The notes under the pieces are model-generated. The model made no database searches and was not told the origin of the DNA. It saw only the letters and a program-made list of their open reading frames with translations. From Escherichia coli (GTDB lineage: Bacteria > Pseudomonadota > Gammaproteobacteria > Enterobacterales > Enterobacteriaceae), in assembly GCF_050320075.1 (NCBI RefSeq), contig NZ_CP190018.1: a stretch of 64,000 nt of DNA; one strand, written 5' to 3'. Shown here in pieces: positions 44,505 to 48,256 of the stretch (positions are counted from its first letter, which is position 1; each line of letters starts with the position of its first letter). A program made the translations under genes and the position numbers.

Positions 44505-44533
44505 AAAAATCCGCCCCGAGAGGCGGATTTTTT
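44505..44533. terminator. Bidirectional intrinsic terminator between opgE and ompX
   Basis: AAAAATCCGCC-CCGAGA-GGCGGATTTTT; A-tract upstream and T-tract downstream. Confidence 0.75.
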
Positions 44534-44548
44534 ATATCACCGAAGTGA

Positions 44549-45064
44549 TTAGAAGCGGTAACCAACACCGGCAATCCAGGTGCCTACGTCAACGCTACGA
44601 ATACGGCTCTGCTCGTAAGAGAAGTCCAGAGCAACGTTTTCCATCGGGTTGAACTGCAGACCAGCACCGTAGGAGAAACCGTAGTCGCTGGTGTCGTGTT
44701 TGTAGGTCGGGTATTCAGTGGTCTGGAATTTACCATAACCCACACCCACTACACCGTAGATGCTTGCCCAGTCGTTAATGCGGTAAGCCGGACCAGCAGT
44801 GATGCCGTAGTACTGGTTTTTGTTGTAGTCACCAGAGCTTGCAGTACGGCTTTTCTCGGTGTAAGTGAAAGAACCGATCACACCCAGCGGGCTGTTGTCT
44901 TCTTCATAGCGGTATTTCAGGTTGAAACCGCCCATTTTGTTCATTTGGCCCTGAGCGTCGCTCTGTGCGTAACCGCCAGTTACGGTAGAAGTTGCAGCTA
45001 CGGAAGTACCTGCGGTGAAAGCCAGAACTGCGGCCAGTGCTGAAAGACATGCAATTTTTTTCAT
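44549..45064 (-). CDS. ompX: Outer membrane protein OmpX
   Basis: ORF 44549..45070; start at ATG 45062-45064 (MKKIACLSALAAVLAFTAGTSVA); 171 aa; beta-barrel ending ...GVGYRF. Confidence 0.9.
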   Translation of the reverse strand: MKKIACLSALAAVLAFTAGTSVAATSTVTGGYAQSDAQGQMNKMGGFNLKYRYEEDNSPLGVIGSFTYTEKSRTASSGDYNKNQYYGITAGPAYRINDWASIYGVVGVGYGKFQTTEYPTYKHDTSDYGFSYGAGLQFNPMENVALDFSYEQSRIRSVDVGTWIAGVGYRF

Positions 45065-45416
45065 AACCACCTCAAATGTGATTCAAATAAGTCCTAAGTT
45101 TTAAATATATCAAAAATTAATGGGAAACTCTTCGCGATTTGTGATGTCTAACGGGCCATTTCATGTAACAGAACGTTTCCATACACCGCTATCCATCTAA
45201 ATTTAAATCACTTTTTCAGAGAACTGCGTAAGTATTACGCATGTTTTCCCTGTCATTCATCCAGATTATTCCTAATCACCAGACTAATGATTCCATCAAT
45301 CCTGGCGCATTTTAGTCAAAACGGGGGAAAATTTTTTCAACAAATGCTCAACCAGCATTGGGTATATCCAGTACACTCCACGCTTTACTTAAGTCTAGAT
45401 ATTTGTGGGAGAAAGG

Positions 45417-46304
45417 ATGCCTGGTTCATTACGTAAAATGCCGGTCTGGTTACCAATAGTCATATTGCTCGTTGCCATGGCGTCTATTCAGGGTGGAGCC
45501 TCGTTAGCTAAGTCACTTTTTCCTCTGGTGGGCGCACCGGGTGTCACTGCGCTGCGTCTGGCATTAGGAACGCTGATCCTCATCGCGTTCTTTAAGCCAT
45601 GGCGACTGCGCTTTGCCAAAGAGCAACGGTTACCGCTGTTGTTTTACGGCGTTTCGCTGGGGGGGATGAATTATCTTTTTTATCTTTCTATTCAGACGGT
45701 ACCGCTGGGTATTGCGGTGGCGCTGGAGTTCACCGGACCACTGGCGGTGGCGCTGTTCTCTTCTCGTCGCCCGGTAGATTTCGTCTGGGTTGTGCTGGCG
45801 GTTCTTGGTCTGTGGTTCCTGCTACCGCTGGGGCAAGACGTTTCCCATGTCGATTTAATCGGCTGTGCGCTGGCACTGGGGGCCGGGGCTTGTTGGGCTA
45901 TTTACATTTTAAGTGGGCAACGCGCAGGAGCGGAACATGGCCCTGCGACGGTGGCTATTGGTTCGTTGATTGCAGCGTTAATTTTCGTGCCAATTGGAGC
46001 GCTTCAGGCTGGTGAAGCACTCTGGCACTGGTCGGTTATTCCATTGGGTCTGGCGGTCGCTATTCTCTCGACCGCTCTGCCTTATTCGCTGGAAATGATT
46101 GCCCTCACCCGTTTGCCAACACGGACATTTGGTACGCTGATGAGCATGGAACCGGCGCTGGCTGCCGTTTCCGGGATGATTTTCCTCGGAGAAACACTGA
46201 CACCCATACAGCTGCTGGCGCTCGGCGCTATCATCGCCGCTTCAATGGGGTCTACGCTGACAGTACGCAAAGAGAGCAAAATAAAAGAATTAGACATTAA
46301 TTAA
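45417..46304 (+). CDS. rhtA: Threonine/homoserine exporter RhtA (DMT family)
   Basis: ORF 45405..46304; ATG 45417 (MPGSLRKMPVWLP); 295 aa. Confidence 0.9.
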   Translation: MPGSLRKMPVWLPIVILLVAMASIQGGASLAKSLFPLVGAPGVTALRLALGTLILIAFFKPWRLRFAKEQRLPLLFYGVSLGGMNYLFYLSIQTVPLGIAVALEFTGPLAVALFSSRRPVDFVWVVLAVLGLWFLLPLGQDVSHVDLIGCALALGAGACWAIYILSGQRAGAEHGPATVAIGSLIAALIFVPIGALQAGEALWHWSVIPLGLAVAILSTALPYSLEMIALTRLPTRTFGTLMSMEPALAAVSGMIFLGETLTPIQLLALGAIIAASMGSTLTVRKESKIKELDIN

Positions 46305-46312
46305 ATTTACAT

Positions 46313-46347
46313 TTCTGCATGGTTATGCATAACCATGCAGAATTTCT
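46313..46347 (+). terminator. Terminator after rhtA formed by a perfect 30-bp palindrome
   Basis: TTCTGCATGGTTATG|CATAACCATGCAGAA (46313-46342) followed by TTTCT. Confidence 0.65.
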
Positions 46348-46458
46348 CGCTACTTTTCCTCTACACCGTCTTTATATATCGAATTATGCAAAAGCATATT
46401 TATTCCGAAAATTCCTGGCGAGCCAATAAATAAGAATTGTTCTTATCAATATAACTAA

Positions 46459-47106
<648 letters not shown>

Positions 47107-47147
47107 ATCCATCGTTGATGGTGCAGAACTTTAGTACACGATAAAAG

Positions 47148-47178
47148 CGGCTTCCTGACAGGAGGCCGTTTTGTTTTG
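47148..47178 (+). terminator. Intrinsic terminator after dps
   Basis: CGGCTTCC-TGACA-GGAGGCCG stem (one G.U) followed by TTTTGTTTTG. Confidence 0.7.
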
Positions 47179-47323
47179 TAGCCCGCCTCAACGCACTTAT
47201 TTAGTGCATCCATCTGCTATCCCCAGCTGGTTAAGTAAATTTTTTGTATCCACATCATCACACAATCGTTACATAAAGATTGTTTTTTCATCAGGTTTTA
47301 CGCTAAATAATCACTGTGTTGAG

Positions 47324-47366
47324 TGCACAATTTTAGCGCACCAGTTTGGTGCCCCAGAATGGTGCA
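47324..47366 (+). promoter_or_regulatory. NtrC (NRI) binding-site cluster upstream of glnH
   Basis: TGCACAATTTTAGCGCA and GCACCAGTTTGGTGCC (consensus TGCACCA-N3-TGGTGCA) plus a further GGTGCA half-site. Confidence 0.6.
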
Positions 47367-47439
47367 TCTTCAGGGTATTGCCCTATAAATCGTGCATCAC
47401 GTTTTTGCCGCATCTCGAAAAATCAATGAGTTGCAAAAC

Positions 47440-47455
47440 TGGCACGATTTTTTCA
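47440..47455 (+). promoter_or_regulatory. Candidate sigma-54 promoter glnHp2 (non-consensus -12)
   Basis: TGGCACGATTTTTTCA: -24 GG present, -12 region reads TC instead of GC; ~55 nt upstream of glnH ATG. Confidence 0.5.
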
Positions 47456-47494
47456 TATATGTGAATGTCACGCAGGGGATCGTCCCGTGGATAG

Positions 47495-48256
<762 letters not shown>

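Follow-up and report, generated by a model that had tools for sequence, protein, structure and literature searches.

The rhtA-dps intergenic region

We analysed a stretch of 64,000 nucleotides of Escherichia coli DNA (hereafter the window) in which rhtA and dps lie in the same orientation, with a perfect palindrome between them. The features of this locus on which the analysis draws were as follows, with the basis of each assignment in brackets.

45417..46304, + strand: rhtA, threonine/homoserine exporter, an open reading frame of 295 codons (open reading frame list; RefSeq annotation of identical or near-identical E. coli loci)
46302-46304, + strand: TAA stop codon of rhtA
46313..46342, + strand: palindrome and RNA stem-loop (repeat search, folding, covariation over 72 species sequences, G·U versus A·C asymmetry)
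46343..46350, + strand: tail 3' of the stem, UUUCUCGC, with a U-tract that is weak and interrupted (sequence)
46343..46420, + strand: C-rich, G-poor untranslated tract, candidate Rho-loading (rut-like) region (base counts for the composition; the rut identity is putative)
46502..46556, + strand: conserved core of the dps promoter (conservation islands in a 13-species intergenic alignment)
46551-46556, + strand: putative -10 element of dps, TATACT (identified from the dps promoter literature)
46603..47106, + strand: dps, an open reading frame of 167 codons (open reading frame list; RefSeq annotation of identical E. coli loci)
47144-47179, + strand: canonical terminator of dps (terminator scan, discriminant)

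Within the promoter core, the block CTATTAGTGTGATAG (46502-46516) is what we take to be the OxyR site of the dps promoter. The locus was 100% identical over 401 nt to that of strain 118UI and 98.5% identical to that of K-12.

The palindrome, TTCTGCATGGTTATG|CATAACCATGCAGAA (continuous: TTCTGCATGGTTATGCATAACCATGCAGAA), occupies positions 46313-46342. It lies 8 nt past the rhtA stop and about 260 nt ahead of the ATG of dps (46603), with its centre ~235 bp upstream of the inferred dps transcription start (~46563). The repeat search returned two arms of 15 nt each (46313-46327 and 46328-46342) with 100% complementarity and a 0-nt spacer, which confirmed the exact, mismatch-free inverted repeat of 30 bp that the initial annotation had described just past rhtA. 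The next outward pair, T46312/T46343, is unmatched. Its G+C content is ~43% (13/30 bases), with a stem base rich in A/U and an AT-rich centre, TTATGCATAA.

A chance origin of the palindrome is excluded. The analytic expectation for zero-spacer palindromes with 15-nt arms in 64 kb was ~6e-5, the longest arm obtained in 200 first-order Markov randomisations was 12 nt, and the longest arms among the other zero-spacer palindromes of the 64-kb window were 7 nt. The statement that the repeat is unusually long for a terminator stem was overstated, as other perfect hairpin arms in the window reached 10-12 nt and the orthologous hairpins of other genera had stems of 11-19 bp. When folded as RNA, the sequence formed a 13-bp stem (46313-46325 with 46330-46342) capped by the tetraloop UGCA (46326-46329) at -18.7 kcal/mol, with a z-score of -5.2 on the + strand and -4.0 on the - strand. 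Folded as single-stranded DNA, the palindrome reached -13 kcal/mol.

Two small open reading frames lying over the palindrome (46319-46429 and 46335-46433) were dismissed because the sequence 3' of the hairpin is poorly conserved and contains many indels across species. Further downstream, positions 46383-46400 (ATTATGCAAAAGCATATT) form a second, imperfect inverted repeat, which has TTATGCA in common with the palindrome centre. The ATATTT following it (~46396-46401) is among the few mid-spacer positions conserved across genera. This second repeat may be related to the distal promoter-like site 'P3' (Melekhov 2015, PMC4433220).

Variation of the hairpin in E. coli and the Enterobacteriaceae

The rhtA-dps spacer was found in 5,421/5,426 complete E. 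coli genomes, and the 54 nt centred on the palindrome were identical in 4,078/5,426. A difference of one base within these 54 nt was found in ~1,290 genomes. In the two such genomes that were read, and also in CUVET20, the change was A46342T (GAA>GAT), by which the outermost pair is lost and the T run is lengthened to TTTTCT, the tail becoming UUUUCUCG. With two such genomes read, this variant is apparently carried by ~24% of E. coli genomes. In a second E. coli lineage, the arms of the palindrome were extended to 17+17.

Rearrangements of the locus were also seen in single strains. Strain 1332KP carries an IS5-like ISKpn26 at CTAA in the rhtA-dps spacer (window ~46455-46458; L005 2710-3930). 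The insertion separates the palindrome from the core promoter of dps, lies ~105 bp ahead of the inferred dps start and lengthens the spacer to 1,498 nt, and it could have altered dps regulation in this clinical strain. In strain tcmA_3, an IS1 end (GGTGATGCTGCCAACTTACTG...) adjoins 5 nt after the palindrome (GAATTTCT|GGTGATG; window 46347/46348, L088 108-167); the hairpin is retained there while the tail and the C-rich tract are displaced. Strain 2015C-4498 (L002) has a 7-bp tandem duplication, ATATATC, in the spacer 3' of the hairpin (window ~46374-46380). Furthermore, the annotation of NZ_CP010440.1, a K-12 MG1655 assembly, gives rhtA as a pseudogene with a frameshift (L001 669-1555). The other genomes examined had the gene intact, and a misassembly or a mutation of the laboratory stock is the likely explanation.

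The palindrome was present as one locus per genome in 5,369 E. coli genomes (both strands of the one site were reported), and within the window the 30-mer matched only itself with up to 3 mismatches allowed. An Rfam scan of 45000-47600 returned nothing at 46290-46360 at E up to 1. Sub-threshold Rfam matches appeared at 47097-47179 (+), in the dps terminator/3' UTR, namely STnc70 (21 bits vs a gathering score of 40) and ctRNA_p42d (24.5 bits vs a gathering score of 50), and these probably reflect mere resemblance between terminator hairpins.

An extragenic palindrome of REP-like length, with IS1 and IS5 insertions nearby in single strains, might be taken for a dispersed repeat (REP/BIME-like, or a transposon end) or for a neutral accident of replication. 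However, the sequence occurs once per E. coli genome, and once in the window, it had no Rfam match, and it occupies an orthologous, fixed position across the family, where it shows covariation. Membership of a repeat family was rejected on copy number and orthology, and we give an origin of this kind practically no credence.

For the comparison among species, one genome per species with Dps was scanned, which gave 80 loci, almost all of them from Enterobacteriaceae. The gene rhtA was located upstream of dps on the same strand in 77/80 loci, usually with a gap of ~300 nt. As their strongest local structure, 69 of these 77 Enterobacteriaceae species had a hairpin with 9 bp or more whose start lay no more than 20 nt from the rhtA stop. 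Over the hairpin-bearing species, the median stem had 14 bp and the median loop 5 nt, the median folding energy was -17.9 kcal/mol, and the median start was 9 nt past the stop. Loops of the orthologous hairpins ranged from 3 to 9 nt. In the 13-species alignment of the full spacer, the hairpin arms formed one of the few conserved islands of a fast-evolving region, the others being the putative OxyR block, the -10 element and the leader.

The spacer-less palindrome was perfect in all four Escherichia species, including E. albertii, where two paired substitutions, C>T and G>A, left it perfect. Citrobacter, Salmonella, Enterobacter, Lelliottia and Silvania retained the outer arms, (TA)TTCTGCATG...CATGCAGAA(TA), around an ordinary loop of 4-8 nt, with a total length of 28 to 30 bp. 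For example, the centre in Enterobacter is GGCUUCGGGGCC (also GGCTTCGGGGCC), vs GGTTATGCATAACC in E. coli, and gives an RNA hairpin without a zero-spacer palindrome. In Kosakonia, Raoultella, Buttiauxella and Cedecea the arms were progressively rewritten (TATTCAGCATGAG..., GTTCTGCACGAGG..., TATTTACCGTGG..., CATTTAATGCGG...) with complementarity kept. The initial annotation had proposed conservation among relatives as a check and had held that absence or degeneration of the palindrome there would speak against it. The hairpin persisted, whereas the perfect DNA palindrome was limited to Escherichia; degeneration was thus found in part, in the form of the looped hairpins of Citrobacter, Salmonella and Enterobacter.

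Some lineages had lost or exchanged the element. In Pseudocitrobacter (L018, L020) and Trabulsiella (L050, L064, L073) both the hairpin and the distal half of the spacer had been lost, which left a spacer of 115-130 nt, and the rhtA stop adjoined the conserved GCTATTA..GATAGG block and the dps -10 element (about 2370-2500). In K. indica (L012), a hairpin near the rhtA stop was absent. The hairpin is therefore dispensable in some lineages, and the Pseudocitrobacter and Trabulsiella species offer natural 'deletion mutants' for the question of whether it insulates dps. The first 50 nt past the stop in Klebsiella (L059, L038, L040, L081) held unrelated hairpins, such as AGGCCCUGA...UCAGGGCCU followed by UUGAUU, indicating that the hairpin was replaced there and not inherited.

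The E. coli sequence equals the hairpin of Citrobacter sedlakii (TTCTGCATGGTT-TGCAT-AACCATGCAGAA) plus a single A, that is, GGTT-TGCAT-AACC in C. sedlakii against GGTT-ATGCAT-AACC in Escherichia. The inserted A adds one more A-U pair and leaves the tetraloop UGCA. Because this loop, TGCA, is its own reverse complement, as are 16/256 tetramers by simple count, the DNA palindrome has no spacer. The zero spacer would accordingly seem to be a by-product, incidental to the hairpin. Quasipalindrome correction by template switching (Ripley-type mutations) can make imperfect repeats perfect, and the inserted A did leave the Escherichia centre perfectly self-complementary. However, a single-base insertion requires no special mechanism, and a template switch as the source of this A is speculation.

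Covariation, strand and the DNA-level readings

Covariation was evaluated on a plain (unbiased) MAFFT alignment of 72 sequences, with a specified helix of 16 pairs and 500 shuffles. In the specified helix 85% of the cells were paired, vs 33-47% when the 3' partners were slid by 1-3 columns. Changes on both sides occurred in 15/16 pairs (195 cells, n=72), and the observed covariation values were reached by 0/500 shuffles. An independent RNAalifold prediction recovered this core helix as well, and 8/8 of its pairs showed compensatory changes.

The strand under selection was examined by counting mismatches in 12 core pairs over 65 distinct alignment rows. The non-Watson-Crick cells comprised 44 G·T vs 9 A·C, the A·C cells being mostly in four visibly misaligned rows; when clades were counted once, there were ~18 G·T vs ~4 A·C independent events. 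A G·T on the + strand corresponds to a G·U wobble in rhtA-sense RNA and to an A·C mismatch on the opposite strand. The compensatory drift, together with G·T mismatches that pair only in rhtA-sense RNA, therefore points to selection on a + strand RNA hairpin and not on a double-stranded DNA operator. With its pairs kept by compensatory substitutions and its wobbles on the rhtA-sense strand, the element behaves in these alignments as a structured RNA would. The arms TTCTGCATG/CATGCAGAA were conserved in sequence in several genera beyond the need of pairing alone, which leaves room for a sequence-specific reader.

The initial annotation had also suggested a protein-binding site or a site prone to recombination or cruciform formation. 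This found no comparative support, as the spacing varies, the arms have been replaced yet remain complementary, and the mismatches are strand-asymmetric. A palindromic operator for a dimeric transcription factor acting on dps or rhtA would explain the perfect dyad symmetry and the conservation of the half-site TTCTGCATG in Escherichia, Citrobacter, Salmonella, Enterobacter, Lelliottia and Silvania. However, the half-site distance is not constant (total 28, 29, 30 bp and more), a variation of which a dimeric binder is intolerant, and the arms were rewritten with complementarity kept in Buttiauxella, Cedecea, Kosakonia and Raoultella. The asymmetry of the mismatches between strands likewise does not suit an operator, and the half-site was without enrichment in the window (8 occurrences at no more than 1 mismatch vs 5.6 expected). 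Moreover, the site lies ~235 bp upstream of the dps start and 3' of the rhtA coding sequence. An operator is largely refuted by the covariation, and we regard it as very hard to credit.

The repeat is already in print as a weak Dps contact, and its observation is not new. Earlier work on the dps regulatory region described a region of Dps contact, 216-281 bp upstream of Pdps, that includes a '30 bp inverted repeat' (PMC4433220, PMC5553809), and the contact site of Melekhov 2015 and Antipov 2017 is the same sequence as the rhtA palindrome. Both papers treat the repeat as a DNA target of Dps; the 3' hairpin of rhtA and its evolution are not considered there. Our literature searches (rhtA/dps palindrome, terminator, the sequence itself) returned nothing relevant beyond these two papers.

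It was accordingly considered whether the palindrome is a Dps-bound DNA structure, perhaps a cruciform, that determines the local topology and takes part in the autoregulation of dps. The site reported by Antipov et al. matches the palindrome at about -250 to -221, deletion of dps lowered a dps-promoter reporter 1.5-fold, and the authors proposed that loss of Dps binding at the repeat could alter promoter topology (Antipov 2017, PMC5553809). Dps has affinity for branched DNA (Melekhov 2015, PMC4433220), and the AT-rich centre TTATGCATAA and the DNA hairpin of -13 kcal/mol are also compatible with such a structure. However, the footprint was weak, with 'only several protected bands' at 5-fold excess, and the distal fragment bearing the palindrome bound Dps less than the promoter-proximal half did (PMC4433220). 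Selection acted on one strand in our alignments (G·T >> A·C), whereas a cruciform requires pairing on both strands. Arms of 15 bp are short for spontaneous cruciform extrusion in vivo. In other genera looped, imperfect versions suffice, and the 5 species without the hairpin retain dps and its core promoter. We consider a Dps-bound structure improbable as the explanation of the palindrome.

A narrower version of this idea is that the palindrome gained a second, DNA-level role in Escherichia, as a supercoil-sensitive cruciform or a Dps-preferred contact ~235 bp upstream of the dps promoter. If true, the added role would couple the nucleoid state to dps through positive Dps autoregulation and topological insulation. 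The perfect palindrome of all four Escherichia species, preserved in one of them by a compensatory double substitution, would agree with such an addition to the family-wide role of the hairpin. We hold the added role to be more improbable still. A DNA-level role in E. coli is unneeded for the conservation and fits the strand asymmetry poorly, and it appears unlikely. Taken as a DNA site for a protein, the palindrome is probably misread.

The 3' end of rhtA and comparison with known systems

The tail UUUCUCGC contains 4 U in 8, of which 3 are consecutive, and the rhtA hairpin was not among the sites called in the terminator scan of the window. The hairpins were also scored with a discriminant of the d'Aubenton-Carafa type (1990), which was checked on three neighbouring terminators; the scores below are reliable for relative ranking alone.

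dps, ompX and opgE terminators: score +21 to +33, 7 U in the first 8 nt
rhtA hairpin, + strand: score -4.5, 4 U in the first 8 nt
rhtA hairpin, - strand: score -40.5, 3 U in the first 8 nt
rhtA hairpin, GAT allele: score +6.8, 5 U in the first 8 nt

Where opgE (+) and ompX (-) converge, the stretch 44505-44533 (AAAAATCCGCCCCGAGAGGCGGATTTTTT) scored as a good terminator on each strand (d = +21 and +33); it has the appearance of a textbook bidirectional terminator and served as a positive control.

Tails in the other species were poor in U. No more than 3 U were found in the first 8 nt in 57/77 species, and genera that kept the hairpin had tails such as GAAUAUC, GAAUAAAGG, GAACCGC and similar. 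The discriminant exceeded 0 in 1/69 hairpin-bearing orthologues, and the E. coli tail was the second best among 70 lineages. The orthologue tails being U-poor, the conserved function of the hairpin cannot rest on the U-tract. An upstream A-tract was also absent; E. coli has AAAUUUACAU ahead of the stem, where other genera have unrelated sequence.

These results bear on whether the element is a Rho-independent (intrinsic) terminator, in which the hairpin and the UUUCU tail would release RNA polymerase with Rho unneeded. A strong, stable stem of moderate G+C stands immediately past the rhtA stop, as such a terminator requires. The E. coli tail is near the threshold (d = -4.5) and second in rank among the 70 lineages, and the GAT variant with UUUUCU reaches +6.8. 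However, the U-tract falls short of the 5-6 or more U in 8 that are typical, the scan passed over the hairpin while nearby canonical terminators had 7 U in 8 and scored +21 to +33, no A-tract lies upstream, and d was >0 in 1/69 orthologues. Intrinsic termination as the main function is thus a possibility that we rate as rather unlikely, although clearly ahead of the DNA-level readings. The earlier proposal that the palindrome probably terminates rhtA holds in so far as covariation and the strand of the wobbles point to a structure at the 3' end, whereas the tail, the scan and the score of -4.5 lend a classical terminator little support, and conserved 3' RNA hairpin is the apter name for the element.

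The sequence 3' of the stem was then compared with the literature on Rho. Positions 46343-46420 contain 19 C vs 9 G in 78 nt. The means over the corresponding 78 nt in the orthologues were 19.2 C vs 8.8 G, with C>G in 67/69, whereas a control stretch nearer dps in the same intergenic region had 16.8 C vs 11.1 G. The excess of C over G is of moderate strength, being moderately stronger than in the control region, and a C/G ratio of at least 2.1 was found in 1.7% of all 78-nt windows of the 64-kb window. We infer that 46343-46420 is a candidate rut site.

Rho-dependent transcripts of E. coli end at stable stem-loops of terminator-like size, which have a reduced U content, no upstream A-tract and an enrichment of C over G downstream, and which shield the trimmed transcripts from PNPase and RNase II (Dar & Sorek 2018, NAR 46:6797, PMC6061677). 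The rhtA stem-loop is of terminator-like size, without a U-rich tail or an upstream A-tract, and it is followed by an excess of C over G of moderate strength. Since the rhtA features match this class, a Rho-terminated, hairpin-trimmed rhtA transcript is favoured.

We consider it fairly probable that the palindrome is the DNA image of a stem-loop at the 3' end of the rhtA mRNA, by which a Rho-terminated transcript would be trimmed and protected and dps would be insulated. Transcription from rhtA would pass through the palindrome, and the hairpin would form about 9 nt past the stop in the + strand transcript, either while this is nascent or once it has been released. Rho would most likely load on the untranslated C-rich, G-poor tract just 3' and would halt RNA polymerase ahead of the dps promoter. 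Exonucleases acting 3'-5' would then trim the transcript to the base of the hairpin and be blocked there. The expected outcome is an rhtA mRNA with a defined, stable 3' end and a dps gene insulated from read-through that arrives from upstream. Some intrinsic, Rho-independent release at the hairpin may come on top in E. coli, owing to its UUUCU tail, or UUUUCU where the GAA>GAT variant is present; by either route the dps promoter would be shielded from transcription entering from rhtA.

Published transcript ends were consulted for the same region. Queried with the gene name and with K-12 positions 8488xx-8493xx, the curated Term-seq tables of Adams 2021, covering three growth conditions, list no 3' end where rhtA stops, while ends in or after dps and near ompX are listed. 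The Rho/bicyclomycin table of the same study (supplementary file 2) has no Rho region near rhtA, a result that is uninformative if rhtA is poorly expressed. The expression of rhtA may be too weak for detection in Adams 2021.

A stem-loop at the 3' end of rhtA would give a likely function, in rhtA 3' end formation and dps insulation, to a sequence treated in the Dps literature as a DNA target alone. The 'distal' regulatory fragment of the Dps studies includes this hairpin, and reporter constructs made with it may be affected at the RNA level. For the engineering of threonine/homoserine export, the hairpin probably sets the stability of the rhtA mRNA. The case also calls for caution, as a hairpin with a self-complementary tetraloop looks like a protein-binding or cruciform palindrome.

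The element shares features with more than one known system. REP/BIME elements likewise are extragenic, imperfect to perfect palindromes of ~30 bp located at gene 3' ends, and they can stabilise the mRNA upstream of them; the rhtA element, however, is single-copy and lacks the REP consensus. Like the canonical intrinsic terminators of dps, ompX and opgE, the rhtA hairpin stands directly past the stop with a comparable folding energy, but its stem is A/U-rich at the base, it has 4 vs 7 U in 8, and its score in the relative ranking is -4.5 vs +21 to +33. With the class described by Dar & Sorek (2018) it shares the stable post-gene stem-loop, the U-poor tail, the missing A-tract and the C>G excess downstream. 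The E. coli tail is more U-rich than that of most orthologues, and the mechanism may be mixed. Placed by its sequence, the rhtA hairpin is probably an ordinary member of this known class.
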